Part shown: positions 26,570-40,018 of the stretch, in pieces
Layout of the letters: each line of letters starts with the position of its first letter
Numbering within the stretch: position 1 is the first letter of the stretch
Source of the DNA: a virus
IMG/VR virus record: IMGVR_UViG_3300048583_000274
Coordinates: 1 to 64,000 of that record
Reading direction: 5' to 3' (one strand)
Length of the DNA: 64,000 nucleotides
Program-made: the position numbers and the translations under genes
The notes under the pieces: model-generated
Seen by the model: only the letters and a program-made list of their open reading frames with translations
Database searches by the model: none
What the model was told of the DNA's origin: nothing

Positions 26570-28477
26570 CTAATGACAATCAGCATAATTACTACCAAAA
26601 TCAATACTTATACCTAAAGGAATATTTAGTTTAAGTGTTTGGTTAGTTAATTGAATAGCTAAATTAAGCTTATTTTTAATAGCCTCTATATCAGATTTAA
26701 GAAAACTAAAGCCAATTTCATCATGGTATTGAAGATTAATTTTAATACCTTGTTTTCTTACATTAGAAATATGCATATCAAAGCAGTAAACTCCTGTTCC
26801 TTGATTAAGAGTTGAAAATTTATCTTTAGCTTGTCTAAGAGAATACCAAAACTTACTTACAGGGTTATACAACCACATTTGCCCTCTGACTACCTTTGAT
26901 ACAGTATCATTGGCAATTTGCTTTACAGCTTTATTTCTTTCCCAATAAATTGTATGCAGTAGAGTAGATTCTTGTAGAGACATACCTGTAGTTAAGGCTA
27001 TCTTAGGTGGCCCAGCACCATAGATTCCACTAAAATTCACAACTTTAGCTTTACTCCTAATCTTCTTAAGTCTAGCATGTTCTGCCTTTTCTTCAGCAGA
27101 CAAGGATTCAGATTTATCCAATTTCTTAAACAAATCCGCTTCTTCTTTAGACATCATGTTGGCTAAAATACCAATATCAATGTGAGGATCAAATCCCGGA
27201 ACTCTCATAGCTTGTACATACTCAGGGTCATAAAACATCATATAATGTTGTTTAGTTGTATCCTCTAAAGAAGACATATCAGAACCACAAAATAAATGAT
27301 TTTCATCAGGGGCTATAATGGCACCTCTAATTTCTTTTCCATAAGGTTTATCTACTCCGGGAAGATTAGCAATAGGCTTTTTATGTCTAAATCTAAGGGT
27401 ATTAGTAAATCCTGCTATTTCAGCTTTCATTCTACCTTTTTCATCAGAACACTCTAAGAAGCCTGTAAATACTCCTATTCTATGTTGAAGCATAAATAGT
27501 CCCTTTAATTCATTAAGAACAGGGTATGTATCAGCAAGAACAGTAATATTTCTACATAGCTTTTTATCTTTATCTTGAAGTTGAGGTATAGCTTTCACTT
27601 CTCCTGCTACATTCTTTTTGTAATCAAAAATAGTAGGTTGCCATCCTAAAGTAAATAGCCAAGCTTTTATTTGAGGAATTGAAGTAGGATTAGGCTCTTC
27701 TTTACTTTTGATAATACTAACTTCTCCTTCAAAATCTGCCTCTAGATCATTATCAGCCAACAGATTCAACCAACTTTCTCCGGCTTTAGTTAAGTCTCCT
27801 TTGACAGTAAACATTTTAGCCGGCTTTCTTTTAACAGTGTATTTGAGTATTGCCGGCATAGCTCCTTTAAGGATACTTTTTCTAAGCTCAACCTGTTCTT
27901 CTAAAGAAGTTAGGACAGTTTGACAATGCTCTCTATTGATAGTTAAAGGATTAGCTTCTTGTTCATAAGCACAATCTAGCTTCCAAGTAAGATAGGCCAT
28001 GACAGTATAATAATTTTCATAGCCATAAATATCCCTAAGATAAGCTACAAAATCTCCAAAAATAATGCTATTGATGATAACATCTTCTTCACATCTATGA
28101 AGATATTCTTGTAAGGTAAGATTTTGCCAATCTTTAATCTCAGGTTTAGCTACTCCTACAGTTACTCCCCATGATTCTAAACCATGTTCTGCTCTTTCAG
28201 GGTATAAGTACCAAGAGAGGGCTAAAGTATCTATTACAGGGCCTGTATGAATGTATCCTGTTAAAGCATAAATAGCAGGTAAATCAAATCTTTTGATATT
28301 ATGCCCTACTAAATAATCTGTCTGTCCTCTTAAAAATACTACTAAATCTTCTAGTGTAGTAATATGAATTTTGTGCATGAGCATATTATCTTGATAGATA
28401 TGAGCTACAAGACAATGTAATTTGGTCAAGGTGTCTAATAACCCATCTGTTTCTATATCAAAAATAGTATATCTCAT
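26570..28477 (-). CDS. family A DNA polymerase with 3'-5' exonuclease domain
   Basis: Exo I FDIETDGL; motif A SDMSSLED; motif B RSKAKVVNFSGIYGAG; motif C LQYHDEIGF. Confidence 0.9.
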   Translation of the reverse strand: MRYTIFDIETDGLLDTLTKLHCLVAHIYQDNMLMHKIHITTLEDLVVFLRGQTDYLVGHNIKRFDLPAIYALTGYIHTGPVIDTLALSWYLYPERAEHGLESWGVTVGVAKPEIKDWQNLTLQEYLHRCEEDVIINSIIFGDFVAYLRDIYGYENYYTVMAYLTWKLDCAYEQEANPLTINREHCQTVLTSLEEQVELRKSILKGAMPAILKYTVKRKPAKMFTVKGDLTKAGESWLNLLADNDLEADFEGEVSIIKSKEEPNPTSIPQIKAWLFTLGWQPTIFDYKKNVAGEVKAIPQLQDKDKKLCRNITVLADTYPVLNELKGLFMLQHRIGVFTGFLECSDEKGRMKAEIAGFTNTLRFRHKKPIANLPGVDKPYGKEIRGAIIAPDENHLFCGSDMSSLEDTTKQHYMMFYDPEYVQAMRVPGFDPHIDIGILANMMSKEEADLFKKLDKSESLSAEEKAEHARLKKIRSKAKVVNFSGIYGAGPPKIALTTGMSLQESTLLHTIYWERNKAVKQIANDTVSKVVRGQMWLYNPVSKFWYSLRQAKDKFSTLNQGTGVYCFDMHISNVRKQGIKINLQYHDEIGFSFLKSDIEAIKNKLNLAIQLTNQTLKLNIPLGISIDFGSNYADCH

Positions 28478-31214: not shown

Positions 31215-31415
31215 TTAAAGCTTTGATTTGAATTTTTGATTTACCTTTTTGTTTAAAAAAACTATAGAGGTTTTGATAAGACTGCTACGAGTTAACTTAC
31301 TTACTATAGCCCAAAATAAGGGAGCTTTACAGGGCTTTGCTGTCGGGCTCTAAAGTATTAAAATACTTTTTTGGCACTGCAGAGGTTACCTCCTAAGTAT
31401 TGCTTATTTTTGTAG

Positions 31416-31883
31416 TGGAGTAGCGGAGAGTTGAACTCCGGTCCAAACTACTTCCTTCTTAAGAATTTATACAGCTTTTTGTTTCCAAAGTAATTTTAGC
31501 TCTGATGGAAACACTGAAGAGCACTCTTGTATCTTTTAATTCTGCTAGAATAGTGCAAGAATGTGTCTAGTAAACTAGTCACTGAGGGTCAACTGTGTTA
31601 CGAGTTAACTTCCACCACCATAGTTTTTTACCCTAAGCTATGGAAAAAGGGAGTATTAATCATGCTTATCTAGGACTAAGCTGCCTCAGCTAACTCTACT
31701 TCTTGTGAAGCAGAAACTAAATCATCTTCTCCATTAAGGATATTATGAACTACAGTCATATTAGCTTGTACTTGGGAATTCTCTAAAATGTTGTCATTTA
31801 TTAAGTTCACCTTAGTTTTTAAGGGTTATCTCTCCCTGCTGATTCTTAAAAATTCACATAACCTGTCAAAACCTGTCTACCCC
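31416..31883 (-). ncRNA. ssrA: tmRNA (transfer-messenger RNA)
   Basis: The minus-strand 5' end is GGGGUAGACAGGUUUUGACAGG. The 3' end is UUUGGAC-CGGAG-UUCAACU-CUCCG-CUACUCC-A. The acceptor stem GGGGUAG/CUACUCC has a G3:U70 wobble and the T-loop is canonical. P2 pairing joins nt 32-42 with 31456-31466. The internal tag frame ends VELAEAA-UAG (stop at 31676-31678). CCA is not encoded. Confidence 0.85.
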
Positions 31884-34019: not shown

Positions 34020-34547
34020 TTGAGAAACATTTATTATATTTGTTACATGAACAAAGATGTACTAATAGGATACATTAATCAAGGATTAAGTACCTGGAAA
34101 ATTGCTGAAGAGTTAAATACTACTCAACCTAACATTAGATATTGGTTAAAGAAATATAATCTTCAAACTTTAAGAAAAACTAATGATGACAATAATTTAA
34201 AATTATGTCCTAAATGTAAAACATCTAGACCTAAAGATGATTTTTATAAATCAATTAAATCTAGTTCTTACTGCAAGTCTTGTATTATTATTTCTAATAA
34301 AGAGAGACAAAGAAATACTAAACAACTAGCTGTAGAATATAAAGGCGGTAAATGTTCTAAATGTGGATACAATAAATGTATAGCAGTATTAGAGTTTCAT
34401 CATGTTGATCCAAACACTAAAGATAAAGATTACTTTAACTCAAGAGGTGGACTAACAGATAATCTTAAAACTGAGTTAGACAAGTGTGTCCTTCTGTGTG
34501 CAAATTGCCATAGAGAAGAACATCACTCATCAACTACTGACATTTAA
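34020..34547 (+). CDS. HNH homing endonuclease with N-terminal HTH
   Basis: The ATG is at 34047. HTH: LSTWKIAEELNTTQPNIRYWLKKYNL. Zinc-binding pairs: CPKC...CKSC. HNH core: KCSKCGY...LEFHHVDPNTKD...LLCANCHREEHH. It is the only plus-strand gene in the accessory region. Confidence 0.8.
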   Translation: MRNIYYICYMNKDVLIGYINQGLSTWKIAEELNTTQPNIRYWLKKYNLQTLRKTNDDNNLKLCPKCKTSRPKDDFYKSIKSSSYCKSCIIISNKERQRNTKQLAVEYKGGKCSKCGYNKCIAVLEFHHVDPNTKDKDYFNSRGGLTDNLKTELDKCVLLCANCHREEHHSSTTDI

Positions 34548-37689: not shown

Positions 37690-38073
37690 TTATTTTAAAA
37701 TATGAGTTTTAAGCCAATTAAGGCCTGATGGATTCCAATCATTATCTTTTCTGATTAGAAGCTTATTAGCTTTAGGAAAATAATCTACAATACCAAATTT
37801 CTCAGTATTAATAGTTACTTTTCCTTGTCCTGCATTATAATCTAAAGATATGACATTTGAGCTATTCTCAAGCTCCTCATACCATTTACCAAAGTTATGT
37901 AGTCTTTGCTCTCTGAAAACCTTTTTATTGGCCCCCATGTAAGCTAAGTCATTGTCTTTGGAATTAGCCTCTTGTTTAAGAGCTAATACTTGATCTGTTT
38001 CACAACTAGTGCAAATACCTGTTAATTTGTTAGCAATGTAAATATTGCATTTAGGACAAATATTATGTTCCAT
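37690..38073 (-). CDS. hypothetical protein with N-terminal zinc ribbon
   Basis: CPKC...CTSC within the first 25 residues. 127 aa. Confidence 0.5.
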   Translation of the reverse strand: MEHNICPKCNIYIANKLTGICTSCETDQVLALKQEANSKDNDLAYMGANKKVFREQRLHNFGKWYEELENSSNVISLDYNAGQGKVTINTEKFGIVDYFPKANKLLIRKDNDWNPSGLNWLKTHILK

Positions 38074-38161
38074 GATTAAAATTGATTAATAATATGATAA
38101 AGAGAGTTATTTAGATTGCTCTTGAGTTCCCACCCTAACTCTCTTTATCAAAATTAAAGTC

Positions 38162-38665
38162 CTATTTAGATGCAGCCTTTCTCCCTGCCAAAAAACCTCT
38201 GTTATGTCCATCTTGGTAAGTGGATTGGTTAATTTTAGGTAAAGGAGCTATTGGAGCAATAGGACAAATAGCCAAATTACCTTTGATGTCTTTCCAACCT
38301 GCACAATAACCATCTTCCCATCCCTGAGAATAAGAGTTATTGATTACAGGAGAGTTATTTAAAGATACTGGTAAAATGGTAGAAGTTGATGTAGATGTTG
38401 TTTGTAGATACTTTTTGGAATAGTTTCCTTTGATATTTTTATATACAATAAACATCTTACCTTTTTCTGAAATGTAAACAGGATATTTGATTGTTTTGTA
38501 AATAGCAAAGTCTGAGGTCTTAGTGGCTTTGCCTATTAATTGGGCCTCTGTCTTTGGAGCATCAAGGTTATAGGTTTTTTGACTATAACTTACTGTAATA
38601 CACAATAAAAGGAGAGCTAGAATCAATATTCTAGTGAATACAAATGTTTTAAAAGCTGGTTTCAT
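38162..38665 (-). CDS. putative secreted protein
   Basis: N-terminal hydrophobic signal-like segment FVFTRILILALLLLCITVS, plus a TSTSTST linker. Confidence 0.5.
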   Translation of the reverse strand: MKPAFKTFVFTRILILALLLLCITVSYSQKTYNLDAPKTEAQLIGKATKTSDFAIYKTIKYPVYISEKGKMFIVYKNIKGNYSKKYLQTTSTSTSTILPVSLNNSPVINNSYSQGWEDGYCAGWKDIKGNLAICPIAPIAPLPKINQSTYQDGHNRGFLAGRKAASK

Positions 38666-38682
38666 AATGAATGAATTAAGAG

Positions 38683-38877
38683 TTATTTTTTATCTTTTGG
38701 TACTTTGACACCTATGTAAATACAGATTAATACATTGACTATAGAAGCTATTGCTGCTATTGGCCAATTAGGAAAAAAGTCTTTACTTCCATGAAATGTA
38801 CCTATAATCATAATGATTATAAAGAGAGTGCTTGAGGCTACTAGCCAAGCTTCCCAAAGGGTTTGATTTATTTTCAT
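38683..38877 (-). CDS. small membrane protein
   Basis: 64 aa with two TM helices. Confidence 0.5.
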   Translation of the reverse strand: MKINQTLWEAWLVASSTLFIIIMIIGTFHGSKDFFPNWPIAAIASIVNVLICIYIGVKVPKDKK

Positions 38878-39218
38878 TGGTTATATTATTAGAGTAAGAA
38901 AATGCTATTTAATAGCTTGAGATGCTCCCGGTGTTAAAAAAGGATATCATGGCCAAATGAAGAGATTTGGGAGCATCTGTGGGCTATTATAGTAGTCTAA
39001 TTGAGTATTTAAGTTCATTGGGACTTAGTTGCAACAATTACCAAATATGCTTATTTACTTAAAAGGCTATTATAGTATATGTGTGGTATTTAGTATTTTT
39101 TGGATATTGATGAAAATGGTGGTGTTTGACTTAGCACACACTCAACATTCACACTATCAACAAGTTAAGCCAACTTATTTAATAAATTTGTTTAACCTAA
39201 AGATATAAATACTATAAC

Positions 39219-39236
39219 TTAGTGAGGGTGTTGCGA
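39219..39236 (-). promoter_or_regulatory. conserved promoter-like motif, copy 2
   Basis: TTAGTGAGGGTGTTGCGA. The minus strand reads TCGCAACACCCTCACTAAGTTATAGTATTTA. Confidence 0.55.
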
Positions 39237-39273
39237 AAAGGTATCATAGATAAAAATAAGGAGAACCATGAGC

Positions 39274-39363
39274 TTATAGCCCATAGTCCTCAAGCAATTC
39301 ATTAGCTGTTTCTAGATCACATAAGATTGCATCTTGATATTGATCACAAAGTATATCACACAT
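39274..39363 (-). CDS. very small hypothetical ORF
   Basis: 29-aa ORF (MCDILCDQYQDAILCDLETANELLEDYGL) starting ~18 nt downstream of motif copy 3. The coding status is uncertain. Confidence 0.25.
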   Translation of the reverse strand: MCDILCDQYQDAILCDLETANELLEDYGL

Positions 39364-39380
39364 AGTTTAAAAGGTTAGAA

Positions 39381-39409
39381 GATTAATACTCTAACTAAGT
39401 GAGGGTGTA
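39381..39409 (-). promoter_or_regulatory. conserved promoter-like motif, copy 3
   Basis: GATTAATACTCTAACTAAGTGAGGGTGTA matches copy 4 at 27 of 29 positions. Confidence 0.55.
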
Positions 39410-39433
39410 TGAAGAGATGGGTTATTTATAATA

Positions 39434-39468
39434 TGCAGTTACTATCCCATATTATAGGGACAGCAACT
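39434..39468 (-). terminator. hairpin, candidate terminator
   Basis: gcagtt...aactgc outer stem with an inner tatccc/gggaca stem. It lies 10 nt past the stop of ORF 39478..39750. The tail is A/U-rich rather than a pure U-tract. Confidence 0.35.
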
Positions 39469-39477
39469 GCGGTATTA

Positions 39478-39750
39478 TTACAGTACTACATCAGGAGCTT
39501 GGCTGTATAGAACTATGGTCTTAGCTGTGTACAGTCCTTTAGGCCCTGTTTTCTCAGCTACAGAGATACCCAATGTGGTTGGGTTCTTAGTTTTAACAGC
39601 CTCTAATGTATCCTTGTGGATAAGTATTGCAGTTCGGGTATTATTGTCCCAATCTTTATACCACTCTGTTTTTTCATTTGTTTCAGTAACAACTTGATTA
39701 AGATTGATAGTTTCAACTCCTAATGTTTTTTTGATTTCTGCTAAGTTCAT
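39478..39750 (-). CDS. hypothetical protein
   Basis: 90-aa ORF whose start is 19 nt downstream of motif copy 4. Confidence 0.55.
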   Translation of the reverse strand: MNLAEIKKTLGVETINLNQVVTETNEKTEWYKDWDNNTRTAILIHKDTLEAVKTKNPTTLGISVAEKTGPKGLYTAKTIVLYSQAPDVVL

Positions 39751-39768
39751 AATGTTTATAAATTAAAT

Positions 39769-39797
39769 GATTAATACTCTAAATCAGTGAGGGTGTA
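39769..39797 (-). promoter_or_regulatory. conserved promoter-like motif, copy 4
   Basis: GATTAATACTCTAAATCAGTGAGGGTGTA. The minus strand reads TACACCCTCACTGATTTAGAGTATTAATC. Confidence 0.55.
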
Positions 39798-39870
39798 GTG
39801 ATATGTTATACATCCTGCAGGATTACCTTTGTTCCCAAAATCAAGGGGAGGGGTATTGTAATCCTAATAA

Positions 39871-39905
39871 TAAGTGGGGGTGTTGTCGCTAAGCACCCTC
39901 ACACT
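39871..39905. promoter_or_regulatory. inverted pair of motif cores at the divergent switch region
   Basis: TAAGTGGGGGTGTTG (a minus-oriented variant) is followed 8 nt later by CACCCTCACACT (plus-oriented). The pair lies between the leftward and rightward modules. Confidence 0.45.
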
Positions 39906-39989
39906 CTAAAAAATATCCAAAAAATTTATTTTGAACATGACCAAAAAATTTTTAGTAAAAAATTTTAGACCTATGTTAAATATTCTTCT

Positions 39990-39997
39990 TAACTTTG
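39990..39997 (+). promoter_or_regulatory. candidate Bacteroidota-type -7 box (TAnnTTTG)
   Basis: TAACTTTG lies 28 nt upstream of the first ATG (40025) of the rightward module. No clear -33 TTTG partner was seen. Confidence 0.3.
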
Positions 39998-40018
39998 TTT
40001 CAGATTAATCTTTAACAT

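Follow-up and report, generated by a model that had tools for sequence, protein, structure and literature searches.

The systems closest to the element described here are the canonical one-piece transfer-messenger RNA (tmRNA) of bacteria (Rfam family RF00023; Escherichia coli tag (A)ANDENYALAA), the host-type tmRNA of Bacteroidota, the long-tagged tmRNA of Mycoplasma and Mesoplasma, and the tmRNAs of other phages. The Mycoplasma and Mesoplasma tags end in ...YAFA, and these organisms lack ClpXP. Their 27-residue ssrA tag is thought to have evolved for recognition by Lon, with determinants distributed along the whole tag (PMC8403727); the most frequent length of a tmRNA tag is 10 residues (PMC11915505). 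Phage tmRNAs have been recorded in mycobacteriophages of the Bxz1 group and in Bacillus phage G (PMC4131195); tmRNA occurs in about 2.3% of phage genomes, two-piece tmRNAs are known from pelagiphages and from Melnitz, and the roles proposed are speculative (PMC4131195; PMC9004378). Phage tmRNAs are usually merely counted in genome papers and their purpose guessed at; that of Calle, for instance, is counted in a table only (PMC8776804). Here, we analysed 64,000 nucleotides of viral DNA (IMG/VR record IMGVR_UViG_3300048583_000274, positions 1 to 64,000; this whole stretch is hereafter called the window), which harbors on its minus strand, at 31413-31883, a tmRNA (ssrA) gene of 471 nt. The explanation that best accounts for the data, and that we regard as likely, is a functional one-piece tmRNA of a crAss-like phage infecting Flavobacteriia, with a modular long tag and belonging to an apparently phage-only clade. 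What is new is a phage-specific clade of bona fide tmRNAs whose tags, of 24-49 residues, carry a conserved internal peptide signal; in the literature searched, which left out most subscription journals, we found no paper that analyses this flavobacterial-phage clade, the length of its tags or their motif.

The window gene shares with the canonical tmRNA the G3.U70 pair, the T-arm and a long helix 2, as well as the hairpin of pseudoknot 1 (PK1), a resume codon preceded by some 10 nt of A/U-rich spacer, a stop codon placed in helix 5 (H5) and an Ala-Ala end. Unlike the canonical molecule, it has a tag of 39 residues (24-49 in the family) with an invariant internal block, it is encoded by a virus, and its CCA is only partly encoded, the discriminator A being followed by CUA. 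The elements on which the argument rests are the following:

31822-31837, minus strand: PK1 hairpin, AGGG / invariant loop AGAGAUAA (31826-31833) / CCCU, with covariation in the stem
31806-31818, minus strand: conserved 3' element of the PK1 region, AAACUAAGGUGAA, part of the motif used to search for relatives
31796-31805, minus strand: single-stranded 10-nt spacer CUUAAUAAAU, ending in UAAAU (from the comparison with relatives)
31679-31795, minus strand: tag coding sequence of 39 codons, DNILENSQVQANMTVVHNILNGEDDLVSASQEVELAEAA, which would be added after the tmRNA-borne Ala
31736-31774, minus strand: core block of the tag, QVQANMTVVHNIL, with the pattern Q-[IV]-x-A-N-M-x-x-V-[FHY]-[SN]-[LI]-[LI], found in 85 of 88 tags
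31685-31687, minus strand: GAG, encoding Glu at tag position -3, where the family consensus is Val (GUG)
31676-31678, minus strand: stop codon UAG of the tag, with a second in-frame UAG two codons on (31670-31672)
31664-31681, minus strand: H5-like hairpin GCUUA-GUCCUAGA-UAAGC, holding the stop codon (read directly and present in the minimum free energy (MFE) and centroid folds)

As regards the host-type tmRNAs of Bacteroidota (loci L014 and L026), the 5' tRNA-like sequence, GGGGUCGACUGGUUUUGACAG, is nearly identical and the context of the resume codon is similar (UUUAACU before GGC in the host type, UUUAAAC before GGC in the phages). Moreover, both kinds of tag start with G-x-N and end with a hydrophobic residue and Ala-Ala; the phage tag looks like the 9-residue host tag split by an insertion of 15-40 residues. 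The differences lie in the sequence of PK1, in the location of the gene (a phage genome rather than a chromosome) and in the tag, which has 39 residues against the nine of GENNYALAA or GEENYALAA (IMG/VR contigs L014, L021 and L026). This agrees with the original prediction, made from the sequence of the window alone, that the tag by far exceeds host-type tags in length. The resemblance to the Mycoplasma and Mesoplasma tag consists in the unusual length and is one of concept only; unlike that cellular tag, whose type is marked by aromatic and hydrophobic Lon determinants and a ...YAFA end, the window tag ends in Ala-Ala, and the two share no sequence similarity. The other phage tmRNAs (Bxz1 group, phage G, pelagiphages and Melnitz) are separate lineages from phages of actinobacterial, Bacillus and alphaproteobacterial hosts, and some of them are permuted.

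The frame that ends at the UAG in 31676-31678 stays open for 49 codons inside the tmRNA, and its translation, PLKTKVNLINDNILENSQVQANMTVVHNILNGEDDLVSASQEVELAEAA, is exactly as first given. The accompanying statement, that such a frame is unlikely by chance in AT-rich DNA, did not survive: when the 471-nt gene was shuffled 5000 times with its dinucleotides preserved, an open run of 49 or more codons ending in a stop appeared in 1788 of the shuffles (36%), the mean longest open run being 46 codons. The length of the frame in a single sequence thus proves nothing, and the case rests on the relatives of the gene.

By blastn, the gene matches Cellulophaga phage phi14:2 (Crassvirales), in which ARAGORN calls a tmRNA, over its initial 169 nt, a stretch that runs from the tRNA-like 5' end into the middle of the tag frame; the 3' two-thirds of the gene have diverged beyond the reach of blastn, and the tag block is still alignable. 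With megablast, the 12-kb neighbourhood in the window did not match any phage. Further relatives were sought with the PK1 motif GAGAGAUAAC-N(2-10)-AAACUAAGGUGAA, which is present in at least 119 IMG/VR viral contigs, many of them of 90-117 kb, and marks the tmRNAs of Cellulophaga phages phi38:1, phi40:1 and Calle_1-3; cultured Flavobacterium phages have it as well. Among 185,579 bacterial and archaeal species, each represented by one genome, the motif has a single match, on a 4.9-kb contig of a Flavobacteriales metagenome-assembled genome (MAG), and the tag encoded there is identical to tags of viral contigs. Since the motif occurs in at least 119 viral contigs against one short MAG contig, the long-tag family appears to be a large and apparently phage-only clade, and not a type of cellular tmRNA. 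The window gene has both the loop AGAGAUAA with the element AAACUAAGGUGAA and a tag within the range of 24-49 residues containing the core block, that is, the two traits of the clade.

That the tmRNA is phage-borne, as had been proposed, is borne out by the rest of the window, a phage genome with PHROG matches to the large terminase (TerL), portal, major head protein (MCP), DNA polymerase and helicases. The MCP shares 82.7% identity with its counterpart in the Flavobacterium psychrophilum phage FpV4 group and gives weaker matches to Cellulophaga phage phi14:2 and the crAss-like phages of Bacteroides. FpV4 itself harbors a tmRNA in the syntenic place (L032 4090-4504; KT876724.1 81947-82361; Rfam score of 58.2 bits), whose tag is GNTNNSVVSLEDNAQVEANMNMAFSLIREDVAVAA and which lies within a 2.3-kb stretch without any annotated feature. 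The gene is identical in all 29 F. psychrophilum phage records and unannotated in those GenBank genomes; ARAGORN run on FpV4 made no tmRNA call.

All the statistics on tags given below refer to 88 distinct tag-coding sequences from the relatives found by the PK1 motif. The tag frame is open for 24-49 codons (median 35) in 88 out of 88, and the differences in length among relatives are whole codons; the other two frames hold stops inside the core block in every relative. Five loci lack a called tag: three are truncated by contig ends, and the remaining two (L043 and L144) are copies of one 5' fragment of a tmRNA, in which unrelated, GC-richer sequence without any tag frame begins directly after the PK1 motif. 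This 5' fragment is perhaps a scar of recombination or integration.

Selection was examined on a 15-codon block anchored on A-N-M, present in 85 of the 88 sequences. Within it, Q, A, N and M never vary, and 84 out of 85 sequences have the V; these fixed residues are encoded by synonymous codons (CAA/CAG for Q, GCU/GCA/GCC/GCG for A, AAC/AAU for N and GUA/GUU/GUG for V), and each of the two Leu/Ile positions uses at least five codons. The entropy by codon position is 0.81/0.59/1.17, thus highest at the third, and pN/pS is 0.44. Since the variation of the block is synonymous third-position change, the tag block is, by this comparison, under purifying selection at the level of the peptide and not of an RNA helix. 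This, in turn, would imply that the tag put on stalled products matters to the virus, as the tag is under strong peptide selection in more than 100 viral genomes.

These data also bear on the possibility that the frame is open by chance and the peptide irrelevant, the RNA only releasing ribosomes or titrating SmpB as a decoy, as is reported for the RNA of mycobacteriophage DS6A, which consists of a tRNA-like domain only. Such a view can point to the 36% of shuffles that give a frame this long, and phage tmRNAs reduced to a tRNA-like domain and inhibiting the host tmRNA have been described (PMC4131195). Chance openness is highly improbable, however, in view of a frame that is open in all 88 relatives with indels of whole codons, of a substitution pattern that is codon-periodic and leaves invariant residues, and of a tag block that is just the part still alignable between the window and phi14:2.

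The next question concerns the point at which translation resumes. The consensus resume codon of the Rfam model is aligned, with high posterior probability, to GAC (Asp) at 31795-31793 on the minus strand, and in FpV4 to GGA. In the 88 relatives, the codon at the start of the tag is GGC (41), GGA (29) or GAC (18), with no others; the spacer between GGUGAA and this codon is 9-12 nt long (10-11 nt in 84 of the 88, 10 nt in the window), and positions -5 to -1 read UAAAU in 65, UAAAC in 11 and UAAUU in nine. Most relatives have an in-frame stop 2-5 codons upstream of the tag start; in phi14:2 and L002 this stop is the UGA inside GGUGAA. At the other end, the stop codon of the tag is UAA in 69 sequences, UAG in 18 and UGA in one. 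In tmRNAs, the tag frame opens without any start codon some 10-12 nt past PK1 and closes at a stop in helix 5; correspondingly, the GAC of the window is 10 nt past GGUGAA, and its UAG lies in the hairpin GCUUA...UAAGC. Judging from the alignment and from the distance to PK1, translation should resume at GAC 31795-31793, giving a tag of 39 residues plus the charged Ala. This is none of the three codons that had been put forward, namely GGA 31730-31732 (18 residues), GCU 31763-31765 (29 residues) and GUG 31808-31810 (44 residues). The first two are ruled out because both begin inside or after the block selected as a peptide. The third lies within AAACUAAGGUGAA, an element that is non-coding, since its UGA shares the tag frame in phi14:2 and L002; in relatives, this element, and with it the GUG, is out of frame, and the element supplies an in-frame UGA.

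The internal GGA deserves closer attention, because resumption there, after CUUAAU, would produce a short, host-like tag, GEDDLVSASQEVELAEAA, leaving the upstream frame untranslated. The context CUUAAU before GGA is similar to the UAAAU before GGA of the family, starting with GE is reminiscent of GENNYALAA and GEENYALAA in the host, and a host-like ...GEEVAVAA ends the tags of many relatives. Against this, the best-conserved part of the frame, with its synonymous variation, sits upstream of the internal GGA, and the residue at that position varies within the family (N in 46 tags, G in 16 and R in 14). The codon is 74 nt past the PK1 region, whereas the G/D codon of the relatives is 9-12 nt past it (10-11 nt in 84 out of 88), and the Rfam consensus resume codon aligns to GAC and not to this GGA. 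We therefore consider the short tag very unlikely.

The third codon would also serve an altogether different reading, namely an ordinary small gene in a tmRNA look-alike, starting either at GUG 31808-31810 (44 residues) or at the invariant AUG of A-N-M (27 residues). A 44-residue open reading frame (ORF) with a GTG start is in fact listed at 31676-31810, gene callers also produce ORFs here, and the invariant Met codon is preceded by A-rich sequence. The GUG, however, is part of a non-coding element and out of frame in relatives; Q, A and N, upstream of the AUG, are under peptide selection, so translation begins before it; and the features of the tRNA-like domain are all conserved. An ordinary gene at this place is hardly credible. 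Within AAACUAAGGUGAA (31806-31818, minus strand), the string AAGGUGA resembles a Shine-Dalgarno core and stands 12 nt 5' of the resume codon; no partner for its pairing was found within the RNA.

The remaining parts of the molecule are these:

31877-31883, minus strand: 5' strand of the acceptor stem, GGGGUAG, pairing with 31417-31423 (CUACUCC) and including the G3.U70 alanine identity pair (direct reading)
31618-31652, minus strand: candidate PK2-like pseudoknot (CCC...CCAUAG...GGG...CUAUGG; direct reading, with the CCAUAG/CUAUGG helix present in the MFE fold)
31417-31440, minus strand: T-arm CGGAG-UUCAACU-CUCCG and 3' strand of the acceptor stem CUACUCC, followed by the discriminator A and CUA

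The gene scores 66.6 bits against RF00023 (E-value 9e-24, over the whole model, positions 1-374), above the gathering score of 47. The MFE fold of the RNA shows the acceptor stem, the long helix 2, the T-arm and the H5 hairpin with the stop codon; the tRNA-like domain consists of an acceptor stem with G3.U70, a T-arm and a discriminator A, with no anticodon arm. The G3.U70 pair, a 7-bp acceptor stem and the T-arm are present in 67 out of 67 distinct full-length relatives, and the discriminator A in nearly all of them. Furthermore, the acceptor stem covaries, its sequence differing among relatives with the pairing kept, and the PK1 stem shows compensatory pairs within the clade (CAG/CUG, GAG/CUC, UAG/CUA, GUG/CAC and CGG/CCG, next to the GGG/CCC of the window).

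Some points weigh against a functional tmRNA with this long tag. ARAGORN, run on the window, makes no call for the gene; the region 3' of the tag is aligned poorly by the Rfam model; and no second helix of PK1 was found, the loop AGAGAUAA and the 3' element being invariant in the sample and not mutually complementary. In addition, the start could be one codon off, as the triplet at -1 (AAU, AAC or AUU) is compatible with the conservation, and we infer the translation of the long frame from selection.

If the functional tmRNA is accepted as the best explanation, host enzymes would process the RNA and add CCA, and the host alanyl-tRNA synthetase would charge it with Ala through the G3.U70 pair, which is seen in the sequence. 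Host SmpB and EF-Tu would then deliver it to stalled ribosomes, where the message would be resumed at GAC 31795-31793 (from the comparison with relatives, give or take one codon), 10 nt past GGUGAA and right after UAAAU. The ribosome would append Ala and DNILENSQVQANMTVVHNILNGEDDLVSASQEVELAEAA and terminate at the UAG in the H5 hairpin.

The alignment of the family points to a modular anatomy of the tag. A start module, [GD]-[NK]-x, is like the G-E-N of the host and may be followed by an optional segment, x-S-R-V-V-[SA]-[LQ]-G-[DA]-N-A; then come the core block, a linker of 0-20 variable residues and an end that is typically E-[LV]-x-[VLIM]-A-A. An AlphaFold2 model of the tag from the single sequence places helices at 2-20 and 26-38 (pLDDT 79), which is uninformative for a peptide without an alignment. 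The core block would most likely serve as a second determinant by which an adaptor, a protease or some other host factor recognises the tag. A block of this kind asks for a reader of its own, and its closest precedent is the Mycoplasma tag of 27 residues. That it is a virus-specific second signal, docking an adaptor of host or phage, a protease or some other factor, is a tentative proposal, to which we give somewhat less than even weight. Counting against the best explanation, three analyses found no partner or comparable feature for the core block. Proteins resembling the tag were sought in 5.8 billion sequences, with six matches, all of them ORFs mis-called over tmRNA genes; ORFs within about 4 kb, clustered over 123 loci in search of a partner gene, gave a commonest cluster present in 25 loci, the window not included; and the hydrophobic moment of the core block is about one standard deviation above shuffles, which is not significant. 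If the proposal is true, phages of Flavobacteriia reprogramme the fate of the products of stalled ribosomes during infection, beyond topping up rescue, with faster clearance, a switch of protease or sequestration as possible outcomes; the acidic ...AEAA sub-clade to which the window belongs would then be a tuned variant of the second signal.

As regards the C-terminus, the last three residues of the 88 tags are VAA in 43, LAA in 12, IAA in 10, MAA in eight, MVA in five, EAA and AAA in three each, and singletons in four. Overall, Ala-Ala closes 79 tags, in 74 of which a hydrophobic residue stands at -3; because of these 74, the tag of the family, taken overall, has the look of a degron. The window tag, ending in ...LAEAA, retains Ala-Ala, and its Glu at -3 is atypical for a hydrophobic, Ala-rich end; AEAA is one base (GAG versus GUG) away from the commonest end of the family, AVAA. 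The ending ELAEAA is also found in L051 and in five of the six database ORFs matching the tag, and L080 ends in VEAA; the Glu at -3 is thus a rare variant (3 of 88) inherited within a sub-clade. With a net charge of -8, the window tag is the most acidic of the family.

In E. coli, the dominant determinant for ClpX is the terminal Ala-Ala with its free carboxylate (PMC7652416; PMC10862746); residues upstream modulate the strength of Ala-Ala degrons, and a screen that reported depletion of certain residues at -3 did not name Glu as one of them (PMC10862746). By analogy, the terminal Ala-Ala most likely still acts as a degron of the ClpXP type, with the window Glu possibly making it a weaker variant; Glu at -3 together with the charge of -8 could weaken recognition by the protease, which counts against this assignment. 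The original prediction had gone further, stating that AEAA is not the LAA degron and that ribosomes may be rescued with the tagged proteins routed to a different fate. On this reading, Glu at -3 and the strong acidity would make the tag a non-degron, and the tagged proteins would be spared or sent elsewhere than to ClpXP. In favor of such a fate, the EAA end, rare as it is (3 of 88), is inherited in a sub-clade (L051, L080 and five of the six database ORFs), the charge of -8 is the lowest in the family, E. coli degrons are modulated by upstream residues (PMC10862746), and the long Mycoplasma tags switched protease to Lon (PMC8403727). The dominant determinant, Ala-Ala-COO-, is nevertheless kept, 74 of the 88 relatives end in a hydrophobic residue and Ala-Ala, and the E. 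coli screen did not list Glu with the residues depleted at that position. A non-degron tag thus seems unlikely; the claim was overstated in denying the degron, the Ala-Ala being present. Taken together, the long frame is a real observation, significant only through its relatives, and its ending is unusual only at -3.

The clade is present in culturable phage-host pairs and is therefore directly testable: Cellulophaga baltica with phi14:2 and phi38:1, Cellulophaga sp. with Calle, and F. psychrophilum with the FpV4 group. There is also a consequence for annotation, as tmRNAs of this clade are missed by ARAGORN or given a misplaced resume codon, and they lie unannotated or under coding sequences (CDSs) of hypothetical proteins. 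ARAGORN sets the resume codon inside the conserved frame in phi14:2 (tag GSSVQKLAMVA) and in L002 (ENAQ...). GenBank CDSs labelled "hypothetical protein" overlie the tmRNA in phi14:2 (L001 3001-3470) and at about 26774-27172 in KC821614 and KC821612 (phi38:1 and phi40:1). RefSeq dropped one overlying CDS in phi14:2, and the tmRNA is annotated only in the Calle records.

In the window, the tmRNA lies in a replication module on the minus strand, adjoining a Dda-like helicase and the DNA polymerase. A search of the flanking ORFs against Pfam and PHROG returned DNA polymerase, helicases and unknowns, and no protease, adaptor or SmpB; no tRNA gene was found in the window. A tblastn search of the window with E. 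coli SmpB gave no match below an E-value of 1, and this is a weak test. A scan for sigma-70 promoters and terminators, which does not cover the promoters of Bacteroidota, found nothing convincing. Recoding of stop codons was considered as an explanation for the UAG and rejected: long ORFs are intact under translation table 11, and TAG ends two out of 50 of them. The replication genes that were identified occupy the minus strand, with the structural genes on the plus, and a change of sign of the GC skew coincides with the switch of coding strand, minus to plus, at about 38000-40000. The minus-strand module contains a lone plus-strand ORF, at 34020-34547, with a weak similarity to an HNH endonuclease (E-value 0.004, below the Pfam cut-off); the corresponding region of FpV4 has a group I intron endonuclease.

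Long tags are also found outside the clade. A second set of viral tmRNAs from IMG/VR (L016, L019, L024 and L031) has long tags with another PK1 and without the ANM block, e.g., DEISDFTFEDAMSFVSGEVAIAA, DDNTVSTTKYFLNELEAEFNGKLALTA and DETNVTSAQYLESIALAVTSEKAALSA. Phage tmRNAs with this tRNA-like 5' end may have long tags in general. L002 and L004 (404 and 426 nt, respectively) agree in every nucleotide of the tag-coding stretch and of its flanks, and differ in helix 2 and in the region after the tag, which suggests that modules have been exchanged or else that the tag segment is very strongly constrained. The 5'-end pattern further matched viral contigs with permuted (two-piece) tmRNAs, and a viral contig on which a tmRNA comes after an array of about 20 tRNA genes (L010, L011, L012, L030; L023).

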